From Escherichia coli (GTDB lineage: Bacteria > Pseudomonadota > Gammaproteobacteria > Enterobacterales > Enterobacteriaceae), in NCBI RefSeq assembly GCF_016903815.1, contig NZ_CP069973.1: a stretch of 64,000 nt of DNA, one strand, 5' to 3'. The notes beneath the pieces are model-generated. The model was not told the DNA's origin and did not search any database. It saw only the letters and a list, made by a program, of their open reading frames with translations. Below are positions 11,986 to 32,118 of the stretch, one piece after another. The number at the start of each line of letters is the position of its first letter. Positions within the stretch are counted from its first letter, which is position 1. The translations under genes and the position numbers were made by a program.

Positions 11986-12579
11986 TCAATTATGTAAATC
12001 TTTTGTTTTATGTTCTTTAGCGTATTGTGACAACAAATGGCTATAGCGTTTAAGCAAAATATTAGAAAGATTAAGCTCATTCATGAAGTGTTCTTCTAAT
12101 AAGTAACCATCAATATCAACTTTAATATCATTACCACTTTTCATCTTCTGTAACGTAGATTTCACACGCTCCAGCAGGATGCTTTGCTCATGGTAATAGT
12201 CCATAAGAAGAGTAACATCCTCTTTATCAAGCTTACTTAATTCGCTGAAGTAGGATTTAAACACTTTATCAGTCTGGTTTAATGCAATCTGTAAGCGAGG
12301 CCCCCCTAATGATTTGACATTAATGGCAAAAGGCTCGCCAACAAAATGCTCCGAATTTTCGTCAAAGCCAATATATCTCGTTTTATCAAGAAAAGTGAGA
12401 GCGCGATGGTTATTAGCGATTTCATATGCAAACATTGTTCTGATACTGTCCCTCTCAGCCTCCATGCTTATATCATCACGGTGATTTGTATAAAATATAT
12501 TTCCAACAAAGAGAACCATAGCAAGAATCACTGAACTTGCCTCCCAGTTAATATTTTTAAATCGTCGCTTAGTAAACAT
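11986..12579 (-). CDS. AT-rich cargo gene at the Z/fun locus: membrane-anchored protein of unknown function
   Basis: 197 aa; N-terminal TM helix (SSVILAMVLFVGNIFY) then charged soluble domain; lies between G and FI where P2 carries Z/fun; visibly AT-rich. Confidence 0.6.
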   Translation of the reverse strand: MFTKRRFKNINWEASSVILAMVLFVGNIFYTNHRDDISMEAERDSIRTMFAYEIANNHRALTFLDKTRYIGFDENSEHFVGEPFAINVKSLGGPRLQIALNQTDKVFKSYFSELSKLDKEDVTLLMDYYHEQSILLERVKSTLQKMKSGNDIKVDIDGYLLEEHFMNELNLSNILLKRYSHLLSQYAKEHKTKDLHN

Positions 12580-16797: not shown

Positions 16798-17145
16798 TCA
16801 ACTCACAGGGATGGTTAATGAAAGTGGCTGGCCGGTGTCGTTGTGCTGGCCGGTTAACGTGACCGTCATTCGCCCGTCAAAACTGCGCTCAGTGGTGACG
16901 GATGACAGGGTGACGCGGGGTTCCCATTTCAGCACCGCCATGTAACAGGCGACCTTAATCTGCAACTCAAGCGCCGGGGTCTGCGGCTGGTCAATCATTG
17001 ATGCCAGCAACGAGCCGTAATCACGACGCATCACCCGTGAGCCGACCGGTGTGCGCAGGATATCGCCGATACTCTGGCTGATATGCTCAAGGTCAGTGAC
17101 AGTCAGGCCATCACTGCGATTCATTCCGAGATAACGCGCTGTCAT
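16798..17145 (-). CDS. W: Baseplate protein gpW
   Basis: 115 aa; position. Confidence 0.85.
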   Translation of the reverse strand: MTARYLGMNRSDGLTVTDLEHISQSIGDILRTPVGSRVMRRDYGSLLASMIDQPQTPALELQIKVACYMAVLKWEPRVTLSSVTTERSFDGRMTVTLTGQHNDTGQPLSLTIPVS

Positions 17146-17771
17146 AAAGGACTCCCGGTTGTGCCGCCGCTGTCGCCGGGGTGTTTGTGGGTATGCAGTA
17201 CCTTACCGTTTGATGAGAGTTCACCGCCGGTGTGTTCAATGTTGCCGCGCATCGTCCCGCCCTTCTGCACTTCCAGCGTGCCGGTAGTCAGTTTGTTAGT
17301 GCAGACCACTTCTGGTGTGTCCAGGGTGACGCGGGTTGATGCTTTCACCGTGACCACTGGTACCGTGGCAGTAACAGAATCAGAAGCCGTCACGCTGGCC
17401 GTTTTAATTCCGCTTACCGTGAGTGCACTGGTTTCAGGTTCATACTCAATCACCGCCCCGTCAGGGAAACGGATATGCAGGGCATCCGCCGACGCAGACG
17501 GCGCAGGGTTATCGCCGGAATAAATCCCCGGCAGAACGAACGCCGTGTCGAGTTCACCGCCCACGGCCAGAATCAGCACCTGTTCCCCCACGGAAGGTGC
17601 CCACCATGTGCGCGAACGCCCAGCGCGATGGGTCAGCCACTGAAGCCAGTCGGTGCACATGCCGCCAGTCTGCACACGGCAGCGACCGGCATTAAGGTCG
17701 GTTTCGACGATAATGCCAGTGCGAATCATATTGCGTATAAAGCGAAGAATTTCATTGTATTGTGCATTCAT
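17142..17771 (-). CDS. V: Baseplate spike/assembly protein gpV
   Basis: Start chosen at MNAQYNEILRF for a P2 V-like length; the upstream ATG at 17849 is an alternative. Confidence 0.8.
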   Translation of the reverse strand: MNAQYNEILRFIRNMIRTGIIVETDLNAGRCRVQTGGMCTDWLQWLTHRAGRSRTWWAPSVGEQVLILAVGGELDTAFVLPGIYSGDNPAPSASADALHIRFPDGAVIEYEPETSALTVSGIKTASVTASDSVTATVPVVTVKASTRVTLDTPEVVCTNKLTTGTLEVQKGGTMRGNIEHTGGELSSNGKVLHTHKHPGDSGGTTGSPL

Positions 17772-17857
17772 TCGATAATAATGATTCTGTACAATCTCGA
17801 AGTAAATCACACCACGATTTCTGGTGCACAGAACAACAAGGGACAACAAAATCCATT

Positions 17858-18931
17858 ATGAGTACTTACTTTTTCTCGTCAGAAACAATGAAAGAATTGT
17901 TCAAAGATTATCTGGTCTTTTTGAACACGCTGACTCCCAGCACAAACTTTGAATCAAACAGAAACAAAATAATTGCTCAAGCAATAAACTTCATTTCCGA
18001 AAACCCTGAAGATTGGGACAAAAAATCCCAGTACAACATTGCTATGATTGGCGACACCTTTAAAAGTTTCTTAAGAGAAAAGGGGGAAGATAACAACAGC
18101 ATCAACCTTATATTCACTTGCTTTTTTAGATTTATCATTGAACCAAGCATTCTCTCTCCGGAAATAGAGTCTCACTTTTCACCACTAAGAACCATCAAGG
18201 ATTTTGCTCTGTATAACTATAATGAATTCGATGAGCGGAGCAGAGCACAGATAGACTTTTCTCTTAGAGAACTGCCATTAGCAATGGTTAAAGAAGTTTT
18301 AAGCTCCAGCAATGTTGACACATATAAAAAATACATTGATAGTTTAAACGAAGGGCGTCAATTTTTCGAAAAGTGCGACTCCTTCTTAAAGGAGCAACAT
18401 GCCAAAATAGAGTCAATTAAAGAGTCATTAAAAGGGTATGAGGTCGCATTTAATTTTGTTGGATTGTTTGATGGCTTTAATTCACTTGGCAAAAAGAAAG
18501 AAAGTGAAATCATGCTATCAAGAATAATTCTTATCATCTTGGCTATAATCATTCCCTCCCCGCTGATATACTATGGAATGCATAAATTACCAACTCTCGA
18601 AACGACAAATGCTGCCACATATTTTATGTCAGCACTACCTTTTGCATCAGTTACATTGATTTTCATGTATTACTTTAGAGTTGTACTGATAAATCATATA
18701 TCGTTACGAACTCAGATTATGCAAATAGAACTCAGAAAGAGCCTTTGTCAGTTCATTCAGAGTTATAGCGACTATTCCTCAGAGATAAGGAAAAACAATC
18801 CGGAAGCGCTTTCAAAATTCGAAGACGTAGTATTTTCAAACATCATGCTATCCGATGATAAGATACCATCTACATTTGATGGCATTGAGCAAATAGCATC
18901 GTTAATCAATTCATTAAAAAATGGAAAGTAA
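17858..18931 (+). CDS. AT-rich cargo gene at the orf30 locus: protein with two C-terminal TM helices, unknown function
   Basis: About 357 aa from MSTYFFSSETMKELF; soluble N-terminal domain, two hydrophobic helices (IMLSRIILIILAIIIPSPLIYYG; AATYFMSALPFASVTLIFMYYF); opposite strand to flanking tail genes; own terminator. Confidence 0.65.
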   Translation: MSTYFFSSETMKELFKDYLVFLNTLTPSTNFESNRNKIIAQAINFISENPEDWDKKSQYNIAMIGDTFKSFLREKGEDNNSINLIFTCFFRFIIEPSILSPEIESHFSPLRTIKDFALYNYNEFDERSRAQIDFSLRELPLAMVKEVLSSSNVDTYKKYIDSLNEGRQFFEKCDSFLKEQHAKIESIKESLKGYEVAFNFVGLFDGFNSLGKKKESEIMLSRIILIILAIIIPSPLIYYGMHKLPTLETTNAATYFMSALPFASVTLIFMYYFRVVLINHISLRTQIMQIELRKSLCQFIQSYSDYSSEIRKNNPEALSKFEDVVFSNIMLSDDKIPSTFDGIEQIASLINSLKNGK

Positions 18932-18936
18932 TGATA

Positions 18937-18959
18937 AAAGGCCAATAACTGGCCTTTTA
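18937..18959 (+). terminator. Rho-independent terminator after the orf30-locus cargo gene
   Basis: Hairpin aaggccaataactggcctt followed by T-rich run. Confidence 0.6.
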
Positions 18960-19033
18960 TTTATTAACATGAAAATTCAAAATAAATTATGCTAATCAAT
19001 TGATTTCTATCTTATATTCTCAGATGATTAAAT

Positions 19034-19486
19034 CTAACGATTCAGGTGAGCCAGGATAATCTCTTCAATCATCTGCACATCCTCACCGGTAAAGCCAAGC
19101 AGAGGACGCGCCGGATAATCAATTTTCTTACCGTCTTTCCGGGTTTCTTCCGACAGACCGAACTGATGCACACTGGCGATTTTCGGTGACTTCCCGCCGT
19201 AAAACTCCATTGATGCCTGTTCAGGGCTGGCGCGGATATGCAAAAAACGACTGGTGATAAGTTTCGCAAACATTTTTCGCTTAACGCGACCGGTCTTTTT
19301 TCTGGCGCTCTGCTGCTGGCGTGGTGCGTAGGGTGTGCCGTCCGGGGCTTTCTGTGCCATCACCCGACGCTGCTGACTCTGCCGCAGACGTTTCGCCAGT
19401 TCTGCACTCAGTCGCCGACGCCCAGACGGTGACAGCGATTCAATCAGTCCGGTCAGCCGGTCTTCAAAACGCTTAAACTCATTCAT
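19034..19486 (-). CDS. S: Tail completion protein gpS
   Basis: 150 aa; position. Confidence 0.85.
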   Translation of the reverse strand: MNEFKRFEDRLTGLIESLSPSGRRRLSAELAKRLRQSQQRRVMAQKAPDGTPYAPRQQQSARKKTGRVKRKMFAKLITSRFLHIRASPEQASMEFYGGKSPKIASVHQFGLSEETRKDGKKIDYPARPLLGFTGEDVQMIEEIILAHLNR

Positions 19487-28596: not shown

Positions 28597-30021
28597 ATGG
28601 TTTCGTCAAACGTCAAAATAGCAGCATTTCCAGCAAAAAGATTCTTTGTTGAGATGCTCACCCGAGATATTGAGTTGTCTGACTCAATTCTAGATTTACT
28701 AGATAACTGCCTAGATGGTGTATTAAGAAAAAACAATTTCACTCCAGAGCAAACCTTCGGTAAATCAGACGTTTACAAGGGTTACTATGCTCATATTGAA
28801 TTTGATGAGAATAGTTTCAGAATAACTGATAATTGCGGAGGTATTCCAGCAAAACTTGCGGAAAGCTATGCGTTTAGGTTGGGTAGACCTGCAGAACGTG
28901 AGGCGGATGATCTCCCGACAATTGGTGTATATGGTATCGGAATGAAACGAGCGATTTTCAAAATGGGGACATCTGCTCAGATTTTAAGCAAAACTGAAAA
29001 CGAACAATTTTCAGTTACCATTTCTCCTGAATGGATGGCTGATGATGAAAACTGGTCTTTGGAGTTAGAGCGAAATAATGTTGACTTAAACGAAACAGGC
29101 GTCAGCATCCAAATTAACAATTTAAGGAAAGATATTAAAGCATCCCTATCAAAGGATCGTGGCTTTGAAGAAGTTTTGATTAATATCATAGCAAATCATT
29201 ATAGTTTAATCATTAAAAAAGGGTTTGAGGTTAAAGTAAATGGATGTATTGTTAAGCCAAATAGCACCAATTTAATATTTGATGAAGAAGCCATTAAAGG
29301 CAATACCGACGGCATTGCTCCTTATGTATATAAAAATAATTCAAATGGAGTTTCAATTAAAGTTGCAGTTGGATTTTATCGTAACTTGCCTAGTGAGGAA
29401 GAAGAAGAGAATTTATTATCAGGCCGTTCCACAACAGAAAAAGCTGGTTGGACAATTATATGCAATGATCGTGTAGTCCTACATGCGGATAAAACCAAGC
29501 TTACAGGTTGGGGAGAAGCTGGAGTTCCACAATATCATACTCAATTCATCGGAATTTCTGGTGTTGTTATTTTCACATCATCAAATGCTGAATTACTACC
29601 TATCACTACAACTAAACGAGGTGTTGATGGTAACTCTGAGCTATATCTTTCTACTAAAGATTTTATGCGCGAGGGTTTAAAATTCTTCACGGACTTTACC
29701 AACAAATGGAAAAGTAACGCAGAGGAAAGAAAGCAAATTATTAATACTGCATCCAATATGGTTTCAACAACTGAGGTCGACTTTACTAAATCAATTCCTA
29801 GAGAAAACTGGTCGAACGTTCGACGTTCAATAGGAGGAGAAGTTTTCAAACCGAAGCTACCAATGCCTCGGGATTCGGATCCATTACGTCAGATAAAATT
29901 TAGCCGTAGACATAGTGAAATAAAACTGGTGTCAGAGTTTCTCTTTGATGATGCAACTCAACCACCAACAGAGGTTGGTCAATATTGTTTTGATGAATTT
30001 CTAAAAAAGGCTAAACAATGA
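28597..30021 (+). CDS. GHKL-superfamily (MORC/MutL/Hsp90-like) ATPase, cargo gene at the tin/old locus
   Basis: 474 aa; Bergerat-fold motifs read directly: N-box DLLDNCLDG, G1 box DNCGGIP, G2 box GVYGIGMK; AAGGA RBS; AT-rich. Confidence 0.75.
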   Translation: MVSSNVKIAAFPAKRFFVEMLTRDIELSDSILDLLDNCLDGVLRKNNFTPEQTFGKSDVYKGYYAHIEFDENSFRITDNCGGIPAKLAESYAFRLGRPAEREADDLPTIGVYGIGMKRAIFKMGTSAQILSKTENEQFSVTISPEWMADDENWSLELERNNVDLNETGVSIQINNLRKDIKASLSKDRGFEEVLINIIANHYSLIIKKGFEVKVNGCIVKPNSTNLIFDEEAIKGNTDGIAPYVYKNNSNGVSIKVAVGFYRNLPSEEEEENLLSGRSTTEKAGWTIICNDRVVLHADKTKLTGWGEAGVPQYHTQFIGISGVVIFTSSNAELLPITTTKRGVDGNSELYLSTKDFMREGLKFFTDFTNKWKSNAEERKQIINTASNMVSTTEVDFTKSIPRENWSNVRRSIGGEVFKPKLPMPRDSDPLRQIKFSRRHSEIKLVSEFLFDDATQPPTEVGQYCFDEFLKKAKQ

Positions 30022-31010
30022 GTACTGGCGGAAGCATCCCATATCATTTGCGGCAAAACAAAGCCATTGAAAGGAATCTATTTATAGAATCCCTAAGAAG
30101 GTTAAACAATTATACAAACATATCCGAATATGTATATATAGGATTCGGGGGGCCTTTCCTCGAAGATTTCAAACAAATTCATAATTTGTTAAAAGTGACT
30201 AAAATGATATCTATCGAAGGAGATAAAAATGTCCATTGCCGACAACAGTTTAACAAACCATTATCTTGCATAAATTTGGGTGATACCCCAGAAATGAGCG
30301 GAGACTTCATCAATCGCTATAACTTTGACGATAAAACGATCATATGGTTAGATTATGCAACGCCTTCAGACTTAAATGCTCAGTTAAATGAAATAGTTAA
30401 TTTGGTTACAAAGCTAAAACCCAAAGACATTTTTAAGATCACTTTAAATGCAAACCCTGAAGCCTTGGGAAAAAACCCGAGCGAACGAGATCCAAGAGCA
30501 TATAGATTTCAAAAGATAAACGATATTTTGACTCAAGATTTTTTACCACCGAATGCAGTAGTCGAAGATGTCGGATTTAAAAAATACCCTATGCTCCTAG
30601 TTAATGCTATGAGACGCGCAATAGGGCATGGATTAAAAGGTCGAAATGACATAAGAATACATCCATTAACTTCTTTCGTTTATAAAGATGGCCAACAGAT
30701 GGTTACTTTAACAGCTATCGTTCTTGAAAACACTGATACAGAAGAAGCTAAATTTATTGATAATTCCAGAATCAAGAATTGGCCATTTTATGATGGGAAG
30801 TGGAGTAATCCTAAAAATATAAACGTCCCTGCTATGTCTTTAAAAGAAAGGATACATATTGAATCTTTATTACCCGAAGCTTCAGTAGAAAACATCCATG
30901 AAACTCTAGGGTTTTACATTGGCTCCACTCCTTCTGGAGCCAACTCCGATCTAAGTAATTTTATCGAATACTACAAGGTCGTTCCATGGTATTCAAAGAT
31001 TCTTTTTTAA
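30018..31010 (+). CDS. Uncharacterised 330-aa protein, translationally coupled to the GHKL ATPase
   Basis: Start overlaps the GHKL stop by 4 nt; no motif recognisable by eye; AT-rich. Confidence 0.65.
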   Translation: MSTGGSIPYHLRQNKAIERNLFIESLRRLNNYTNISEYVYIGFGGPFLEDFKQIHNLLKVTKMISIEGDKNVHCRQQFNKPLSCINLGDTPEMSGDFINRYNFDDKTIIWLDYATPSDLNAQLNEIVNLVTKLKPKDIFKITLNANPEALGKNPSERDPRAYRFQKINDILTQDFLPPNAVVEDVGFKKYPMLLVNAMRRAIGHGLKGRNDIRIHPLTSFVYKDGQQMVTLTAIVLENTDTEEAKFIDNSRIKNWPFYDGKWSNPKNINVPAMSLKERIHIESLLPEASVENIHETLGFYIGSTPSGANSDLSNFIEYYKVVPWYSKILF

Positions 31011-32118
31011 CTTTTAAACAGTAATCGTATAAAGGTAATAGCATAGCCTCAGCCACAAGCGGACTAACGCTATTACCTATCTGTCTAAAACTGTGCCACT
31101 TTGTAGGATGAAAACGGAACCAATCAGGAAACCCTTGTAACCTAGCTGCTTCACGAGGAGTTATCACCCTAGCTTGAGTAGGGTGAATTGGCCTAACGGC
31201 CTGATAACTCCCCTTGTCACTTCCTGTACCTGCTCTCAAAGTTGGACAAAAACCGTTAGGATTGAGTCGTTGTGATCTCGAAATCTTATCAGTTTCACCG
31301 AATGAAAGTTGTCTATATCTCCTGAGCACTTCCTCCGAATGAGCTGTACCTAAAAAGCCAGATACCAATCCTTTCTTTAAATTTTGAATGGATTCTGCAT
31401 CACCTACACCATTTGGTATATGTCCCCAAAGTCGCTCATAATAGTAACCATCTTTATCCATTTTTACTGAACGCCAGCCTTGCTCCTCTGTCTGCCACTC
31501 TTTTCTTATAGTTCGCGGTAATCCGTAGAGTGCATCTTTGACAAGAGTCTGCTCTATTATATTTTTAGGAAAAAAATCAGATTCTTTTAACTGATTAATA
31601 AAACCTCTTTTAAAACCCATGAAAAATATTCGTGTCCGTGTCGTAGGTGCTCCATAATTTGAAGCATTAACCCTTATTGGATGTAATAAACAATAGCCAT
31701 CTCTAACTAAAGAAAATGCTTCTTCTCTTACTGGATTATATTTCTCACCCATAATTCCTGGAACATTCTCTGCCAAAAAACAAATTGGAGATAACTCACT
31801 TACCAACCTAAAAAAATGAATATACAATTCATTTCTTGTATCATTGGCATTCCTTTTTCCAATGGTGCTAAATCCTTGGCAAGGTGGACCACCAATAACG
31901 CAATCAATGTCCTTTACAGCACATGCAGACAAAATATCTTTTGCTGTAAGCGAGCAGACATCCCGATGCAAATGTGTTGATTTTGGGAAGTTTAACTCAT
32001 GTGAAAAAATAGCATGTTTATCCAGTTCAACAGCTCCAACCAAGTTGAAACCGGCTCGAGTTGCCCCTAAGCTTAAACCGCCAACTCCAGAGAATAAATC
32101 AACTACATTCATATTCAA
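30961..32118 (-). CDS. DNA (cytosine-5)-methyltransferase
   Basis: 385 aa; motif I DLFSGVGG, motif IV GGPPCQGFS, motif VI ENVPG, C-terminal QIGNSVSP; 3' end overlaps the partner gene by 50 bp convergently. Confidence 0.85.
   Translation of the reverse strand: MNMNVVDLFSGVGGLSLGATRAGFNLVGAVELDKHAIFSHELNFPKSTHLHRDVCSLTAKDILSACAVKDIDCVIGGPPCQGFSTIGKRNANDTRNELYIHFFRLVSELSPICFLAENVPGIMGEKYNPVREEAFSLVRDGYCLLHPIRVNASNYGAPTTRTRIFFMGFKRGFINQLKESDFFPKNIIEQTLVKDALYGLPRTIRKEWQTEEQGWRSVKMDKDGYYYERLWGHIPNGVGDAESIQNLKKGLVSGFLGTAHSEEVLRRYRQLSFGETDKISRSQRLNPNGFCPTLRAGTGSDKGSYQAVRPIHPTQARVITPREAARLQGFPDWFRFHPTKWHSFRQIGNSVSPLVAEAMLLPLYDYCLKVKKESLNTMERPCSIR

Follow-up and report, generated by a model that had tools for sequence, protein, structure and literature searches.

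An AT-rich mobile gene in the S-V slot of a P2-like Escherichia coli prophage encodes a predicted two-helix membrane protein with a possible role in phage defence

In a stretch of 64,000 nucleotides of Escherichia coli DNA (RefSeq assembly GCF_016903815.1, contig NZ_CP069973.1; hereafter the window), we analyzed an AT-rich gene located in a P2-like prophage between the tail completion gene S and the baseplate assembly gene V (17858..18931, + strand), referred to below as the cargo gene. Here, we report that it is a horizontally acquired accessory gene ('moron') of P2-like phages, that it is a genuine gene under purifying selection rather than a chance open reading frame (ORF), and that its product is predicted to be an inner-membrane protein with a fast-evolving cytoplasmic domain and a conserved membrane-proximal module. 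Tentatively, we favour the reading that its product, expressed in the lysogen, would act alone as a membrane defence of the abortive-infection type. The slot and its use for cargo are already known; the family appears to be uncharacterised and, as far as sequence comparison goes, could not be linked to any known family of defence proteins or membrane effectors.

An accessory gene under purifying selection

The coding sequence begins with an ATG at 17858 and comprises 357 codons followed by a stop codon, and its product is a member of PHROG 9373. A first-pass annotation, based on the letters of the window, had described an AT-rich gene of about 357 amino acids (aa) between S and V on the strand opposite to them, all of which was borne out: the GC content of the gene is 34.9%, versus 56-57% in the flanking tail genes. 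We take the ORF as a real gene because of its ratio of nonsynonymous to synonymous substitution rates (dN/dS), which was 0.13 against an allele of 92% identity and 0.23 against an allele of 76% identity. The two halves of the gene differ in this respect, with a dN/dS of 0.29 for the N-terminal versus 0.105 for the C-terminal half.

The position of the start codon was examined with the help of family alignments. The longest frame of the ORF opens at a GTG at 17762 (389 aa), and the RefSeq start lies at 17888 (347 aa, WP_223479977.1), which drops ten codons including an FF motif (residues 5-6) that is conserved throughout the family. Phenylalanine F6 does not vary among 43 homologues and hardly varies among 140. 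Because this residue is conserved yet encoded upstream of the RefSeq start, the ATG at 17858 is supported as the true start, and the RefSeq start is probably mis-annotated, ten codons too late.

Distribution of the gene among P2-like phages

The space between S and V, known as the orf30 locus, belongs to the three regions in which P2-like phages carry genes of horizontal origin (PMC3091744; PMC6823313), and recent surveys of P2 defence hotspots centre on the other regions (PMC9122126; 10.1101/2024.10.15.618418; 10.64898/2026.02.27.708500). We found the V/S region in ~1571 of 5426 complete E. coli genomes and the cargo gene in 59 of these ~1571. In most E. coli carriers of V and S the slot is empty, with ~66 bp between the two genes. 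Alternative occupants in E. coli are unrelated to the cargo gene and have the same inverted orientation, including P2 Orf30 (261 aa), a 247-aa protein that has been noted in phage R18C (PMC6823313), two small ORFs and a 359-aa 'GTP pyrophosphokinase'. The latter, found in E. coli FDAARGOS_1284 (locus L012, 1024..2103), matches the PADLOC candidate PDC-S33 at 2.9e-17 and could represent a CapRel-type fused toxSAS.

The cargo gene resembles these other occupants in its slot, inverted orientation, AT-rich foreign character and the terminator that it has in common with the late operon ending in S. However, its product shows no evident similarity, as judged by family matches, to the 247-aa, 126-aa, 66-aa or toxSAS-like proteins, and homology to P2 Orf30 (NP_046770) was rejected, since the best BLASTP match had an E value of 1.4 over 45 residues. 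In the first-pass annotation the gene had been placed as cargo in the orf30 position; the slot, the horizontal acquisition and the inversion relative to the late operons agree with our data, whereas P2 Orf30 itself proved to be unrelated.

Viral sequences were surveyed by an IMG/VR scan, which provided 80 loci, and V and S were placed at these loci by local tblastn. At 67 of the 80 viral loci the family gene is flanked by V and S of P2-like phages; identity to the proteins of the window is 37-100% for V and 40-100% for S. The same S-V arrangement with relatives of the cargo gene was observed in P2-like phages of Yersinia, Citrobacter and Pantoea. The gene is nearly always on the opposite strand at these loci. 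Among distant loci, cargo identity did not track V identity (rho 0.10, p 0.52), and co-divergence of the cargo with the phage backbone was rejected; the cargo gene therefore has its own history within P2-like phages. Overall, the features by which hotspot cargo is recognized were found for this gene, which lies between core genes, is variably present, has an atypical GC content, is inverted and is followed by a terminator hairpin; a promoter was not found by our scan.

Transcription of the cargo gene

Three bases past the cargo stop codon, a terminator scan combined with fold energies revealed a GC-rich hairpin with T-rich runs on both sides (18934..18960), which agrees with a terminator that had been proposed at 18937..18959 in the first-pass annotation. 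The + strand folds at -16.2 kcal/mol (z score -5.6 against shuffled controls) and the - strand at -14.3 kcal/mol (z score -3.7). The terminator consensus scan called the hairpin on the - strand only, and in the P2 annotation the terminator of the late operon ending in S is found at the equivalent place. Because it folds strongly on both strands and P2 has a terminator at the equivalent place, the hairpin probably serves both converging transcripts, that is, it would be a bidirectional terminator for the cargo gene (+ strand) and the S-ending late operon (- strand).

On the other side of the gene, a divergent intergenic region of 86 bp extends from the V start to the cargo start (17772..17857) and must contain the late promoter of the V operon as well as any cargo promoter. 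In the P2 annotation, the activator binding site of the late promoter pV lies in the equivalent interval. Alignment of the upstream regions across four genera revealed weak conservation with a weak CATAATG block. Given the opposite strand and the apparently bidirectional hairpin, the cargo gene would usually be a transcription unit of its own.

Predicted architecture of the cargo protein

Conservation was measured across 140 diverse family members by column entropy and mean pairwise identity, and all protein segments below are given with their coordinates on the + strand. Residues 1-150 (17858..18307) are predicted to form a cytoplasmic seven-helix bundle, which is fast-evolving (mean pairwise identity 23%), and are followed by a variable stalk helix (residues 151-195, 18308..18442; 22%) that runs into the first transmembrane (TM) helix. 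Next comes a conserved juxtamembrane motif, AFNFVGLxxGFxxLxxxK (residues 196-217, 18443..18508; entropy 1.74 bits), in which N199, F200, L203, G206, F207 and K214 are invariant or almost invariant in the family alignments. TM helix 1 (residues 218-241, 18509..18580) reaches 2.4 in a 19-residue Kyte-Doolittle window and is hydrophobic in all aligned homologues, and TM helix 2 (residues 253-280, 18614..18697), also assigned by hydropathy, contains conserved P261, Y271, F273 and R274. Between them lies a short, presumably periplasmic loop (residues 242-252, 18581..18613), which is the most variable segment (entropy 3.55 bits). The cytoplasmic C-terminal region (residues 281-357, 18698..18928), with the sequence QIELRKSLCQFIQSY ... 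KFExxIFSNIM ... KIPSTFDG, is the best conserved part of the family, the entropy being lowest for residues 281-330 (1.37 bits) and 1.77 bits for the C-terminal tail.

Mean pairwise identity for residues 196-357 as a whole is 43%, and F200, Y271, Q289, R293, F299, Y303, F321, F326 and G342 are invariant in all 140 sequences. On the grounds of this uneven conservation and the invariant residues, the functional core is predicted to consist of the membrane hairpin together with the cytoplasmic juxtamembrane and C-terminal helices, the periplasmic face being outside it. The two adjacent hydrophobic helices had been recognized in the first-pass annotation; the soluble N-terminal domain, estimated there at about 240 residues, is closer to 215, and the C-terminal tail that was called short has 77 residues and is the best conserved region.

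The full-length AlphaFold2 (AF2) model, built with the family alignment, is all-helical with a predicted local distance difference test score (pLDDT) of 79.6. It comprises the seven-helix bundle (residues 9-149), a long helix (151-231) continuing into TM1 and, after a short loop, another long helix (252-313) whose first part is TM2, followed by two low-confidence helices; confidence is low for residues 330-357. Together, the two long helices form a long helical hairpin that is hydrophobic at its tip. When the N-terminal domain was modelled alone, the pLDDT was 93.8 and the predicted template modelling score 0.89. Both hydrophobic helices have basic residues next to their cytoplasmic ends, whereas the loop of 11 residues carries almost no net charge, and no signal peptide was found in the cargo protein. 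For these reasons the protein is likely to be an inner-membrane hairpin with both termini in the cytoplasm (N-in/C-in).

Frameshifted alleles exist in nature (P0004, P0382 and L042), giving a 201-aa product that stops just before TM1 (a cluster of 56 sequences), a 323-aa product and a 1070-bp allele on a viral contig with a 1-bp deletion. Such loss alleles fit what is expected of a costly, optional gene.

Relatives of the cargo protein and their genomic contexts

A profile search of 1.84 billion representative proteins revealed 926 clusters at 50% identity, 673 of which scored below 1e-30. Nearly all family members have ~355 residues and are matched end to end, and none of them is named in the sources. 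The match of the cargo protein to PHROG 9373 has an E value of 2.6e-134 and aligns residues 13-356 with positions 7-387 of the 388 in the profile. The family was found in Enterobacterales, and relatives in the AlphaFold database are named from Vibrio, Pseudomonas and Acinetobacter. A Foldseek search against AFDB50 retrieved family members only, and a profile search of the PDB sequences gave nothing below E 0.3. Among the 140 members, one matched DUF6161 (PF19658), a family that a language model has singled out as potentially defensive, at E 2.7e-3; the cargo protein itself was not matched by this Pfam entry. The RefSeq accessions that we tried were absent from the DefensePredictor supplements.

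The family has a distant 388-residue branch, found on 223 Klebsiella plasmid records, most of which are ~110 kb in size, like the phage-plasmid pJN2-26. A swapped N-terminal domain was considered for this branch, as tblastn had aligned residues 107/137-349 only, but it was rejected when hhalign identified a full-length homologue (99.8% probability over residues 31-357). The profile of the N-terminal domain alone gave a probability of only 15.8% against the branch.

At the other 13 viral loci and in the chromosomal examples, the gene stands alone in accessory positions. In a temperate phage (locus L088, 4913..8167), a family member is located 32 bp past a CI-like repressor gene, which is divergent from a Cro-like gene, and 2 bp before an AbiC/AbiP-like gene. 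An island of an unrelated metagenome-assembled genome (L008, 8001..11077), which contains resolvases and a primase, has a putAbiC gene two genes further downstream than its family member, and this gene is homologous to the AbiC-like gene of the temperate phage (29% identity, E 5e-21). A conserved two-gene system with an AbiC-like partner was rejected, because such a neighbour was present at only two loci among all those examined. Further neighbours at other loci include phage DNA methyltransferases, a PAPS-reductase-like accessory gene, PDC-S31 and a SIR2/pAgo-like match, and integrase-bearing islands with a family member were observed in Sedimenticola and, in another genome, next to smpB. No SMODS, SLOG, TIR or reverse transcriptase partner was adjacent in any context examined; the family gene occurs alone.

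A possible defence function and its alternatives

Selected, optional, usually self-transcribed mobile cargo that is found at least once in a lysogen-expressed operon has the hallmarks of lysogen-benefit genes, which in this phage group usually act against other phages. The conservation gradient along the protein, as read from the alignments, is what one would expect if a conserved effector were coupled to a variable sensor, and the architecture speaks for a protein with a cytoplasmic input and an output at the membrane. We infer expression in lysogens and a role in defence, and the mechanism is proposed in the same sense. The prophage would express the cargo protein in the lysogen, where the fast-evolving N-terminal bundle and stalk would act as sensor or regulator for an infection cue. 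The effector would be built from the juxtamembrane motif, the membrane hairpin with its two helices and the conserved cytoplasmic helices at the C-terminus, and upon activation it might oligomerise and compromise the inner membrane (e.g., by depolarisation or pore formation), and infection would fail owing to the membrane damage. The first-pass annotation had likened the protein to effectors of abortive infection or superinfection exclusion. This likeness is consistent with the context, namely a toxSAS-like gene (PDC-S33) in the same slot, an AbiC-like neighbour in a cI operon and methyltransferases beside other members; on the other hand, it does not extend to a match with any known defence model.

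A number of observations weigh against a defence function. The search of PADLOC-DB v2.0.0 (5027 protein models), a check that had been recommended in the first-pass annotation, gave no family at E<=1 for the cargo protein and chance-level matches only for five divergent homologues (BnzB, 0.0056; PDC-S13, 0.0061). Pfam gave no meaningful match for the cargo protein or for 43 + 140 relatives scanned singly, and NCBIfam none for the cargo protein or 10 distant members, so that the sequence, which had not been recognized at first sight either, matches PHROG 9373 only, a group of unknown function. In the literature, we found no experiment on this family and no paper naming its accessions or PHROG 9373; a 2025 survey of E. 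coli prophage defence was outside the coverage. On the + strand, the 86-bp interval between V and the cargo gene contained no consensus sigma-70 promoter. The TM helices contain few conserved polar residues, and thus a pore is not evident from the sequence and the hairpin could be a mere anchor. One chromosomal homologue has no mobile-element context. The inverted orientation is not universal, since in a divergent P2-like contig (L084, 4764..7989) the family member is co-oriented with the tail genes, 20 bp upstream of V. Genomic neighbourhood is weak evidence, because such slots also hold non-defence cargo. Finally, the strong and long-standing association with a single slot in a single phage family may stem instead from some function in the biology of P2.

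The last point leads to an explanation that we consider rather unlikely but take most seriously among the alternatives, in which the protein is a non-anti-phage accessory, i.e., a membrane protein for lysogenic conversion or the phage life cycle (acting on the host envelope, lysis timing or P4-type satellites) that benefits P2-like phages specifically. The absence of any defence model match would be expected under this explanation, and these hotspots are known for mixed cargo (10.1101/2024.10.15.618418). The slot is constant across phages divergent enough for V identity to fall to 37% (67 of 80 viral loci), it lies between two late operons, and the co-oriented copy mentioned above runs with the late genes. 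However, the gene is optional, most E. coli P2-like prophages having an empty slot or unrelated cargo, and the family is also present in unrelated phages, phage-plasmids and islands. Moreover, orientation and terminator set the gene apart from late transcription, and cargo divergence is uncoupled from that of the backbone.

Unlikely, and slightly more so, is superinfection exclusion, by which a constitutive membrane protein of the lysogen would block entry of an incoming genome without killing, via the ejection channel or a host inner-membrane factor. The P2 accessory genes fun(Z), tin and old have exclusion functions, and the cargo gene would be comparable in being a lone prophage-encoded transcription unit on the opposite strand whose product is assigned to the inner membrane; one homologue is located in a cI operon, the classic site of exclusion genes. 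The protein is predicted to be almost wholly cytoplasmic, though, its sole exposed loop of ~11 residues is the least conserved part, and a large fast-evolving cytoplasmic domain suits a sensor better than a passive plug. We therefore favour an abortive effector over a periplasm-facing entry blocker, because of the fast-evolving cytoplasmic domain, the conserved membrane-proximal module and the negligible periplasmic exposure. Like the lactococcal AbiZ and AbiC/AbiP, lambda RexB, T4 Imm and HK97 gp15, the cargo protein would be membrane-embedded and encoded by a prophage or plasmid, and at least one homologue stands in an immunity-region operon by an AbiC-like gene; the protein may resemble AbiZ and RexB. 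No homology was seen, the PADLOC Abi models giving no match, and it differs in size and topology from the small entry blockers, T4 Imm and HK97 gp15 being much smaller.

It is improbable that the protein is a divergent SLATT-type two-TM effector whose nucleotide-signalling or reverse-transcriptase partner was lost or never present, responding to a diffusible or nucleic-acid trigger made elsewhere, which would overlap mechanistically with the abortive model. In 10.64898/2026.04.29.721553 (citing Burroughs 2015), SLATT is described as a two-TM hairpin with conserved flanking cytoplasmic helices. The cargo protein has both features, which are not specific to SLATT, and its layout resembles that of the SLATT effectors of CBASS-like systems and DRT10, which likewise occur on mobile elements and would, as proposed, act on the membrane to kill the cell or stop its growth. 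Two of the Foldseek relatives bear SLATT names in UniProt, a label that was not reproduced with Pfam or NCBIfam. However, none of 183 members matched a Pfam SLATT profile even at E<=0.1, and NCBIfam, for the cargo protein and 10 distant members, and PADLOC were blank. The cargo protein differs further in its own N-terminal region of 215 residues and in having no nucleotide cyclase, SLOG or reverse-transcriptase partner, and no conserved partner gene was present in any context examined.

More speculatively, and with still less expectation of being right, the protein could belong to a new class of stand-alone, phage-borne executioners of cell death, in which a cytoplasmic domain of the four-helix-bundle type (structurally kin of the MLKL N-terminal domain, the plant NLR CC and CC-R domains and HeLo-like domains) would gate an oligomeric two-TM stalk-hairpin channel, as a counterpart of the eukaryotic helical-bundle death effectors, long kept in one P2-like slot and exchanged among phages, phage-plasmids and islands. 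The hairpin may be compared to that of two-TM stalk-hairpin channels (CorA/ZntB and MCU) and to that of alpha-pore-forming toxins, which is hydrophobic at its tip (XaxAB/PaxB, colicin Ia and IpaB). The long-helical-hairpin matches are generic, also including Rad50, prefoldin and ESCRT-III; CorA and MCU are absent among the matches listed, and the cargo family has no conserved loop motif such as GMN. As for a decaying or silent passenger without present function, AT-rich foreign DNA is often silenced in E. coli, no promoter was called and frameshifted alleles exist, but the dN/dS values, the 926 diverged clusters with their uniform protein length, the large number of invariant residues and the confidently predicted fold make this explanation very improbable.

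If the cargo gene is a defence gene, it would represent a widespread single-gene membrane system without homology to known ones, and the small S-V slot would be a third productive place to look for such genes, as the two larger hotspots have been mined already. The sharp split between the fast-evolving cytoplasmic domain and the conserved membrane-proximal module makes the family a tractable model for the coupling between sensing and action at the membrane. Should the gene have no part in defence, its long retention in a single slot by highly diverged P2-like phages would indicate an accessory function in P2 biology that has gone unrecognized.

Flanking genes and other cargo sites of the prophage

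The slot is flanked on the left by gene V (17142..17771, - strand), whose start was taken from RefSeq, and on the right by gene S (19034..19486, - strand). Both annotations come from E. coli strain 7/2 (L001), in which the S-V region is 100% identical. The drop in GC content begins near 17730, within the first codons of V. When five slot variants were aligned, the first ~14 codons of V (17730..17771) and the V promoter region were AT-rich and unlike those of other E. coli P2-like prophages. These codons and the promoter region were therefore swapped together with the cargo, and the recombination boundary lies inside V.

We also inspected the two other hotspots of the prophage. In the Z/fun slot, between the tail-fibre assembly gene G and the sheath gene FI, there is an ORF of 197 aa (11986..12579, - strand) without PADLOC or NCBIfam match. 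In the old/tin hotspot past the portal gene (28597..32118), two overlapping ORFs on the + strand, of 474 aa (28597..30021) and 330 aa (30018..31010), likewise have no match in either collection, and beside them lies a cytosine-5 DNA methyltransferase gene (30961..32118, - strand; PADLOC MTase_II, 5.2e-100). The genes in this interval may constitute a restriction-modification-like or novel system.

According to RefSeq, the Z/fun slot of strain 7/2 is occupied by a Shedu nuclease, and the site after the portal gene by an FRG-domain protein, a reverse transcriptase and a helix-turn-helix protein. Since the S-V region is identical and the cargo at the other two hotspots is different, the hotspots reshuffle independently. 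In this strain, the neighbours of the P2-like prophage (L001, 4190..41175) are pflB, next to ogr, and pflA, next to the integrase gene; the prophage thus separates two genes of the pyruvate formate-lyase locus that ordinarily adjoin each other.

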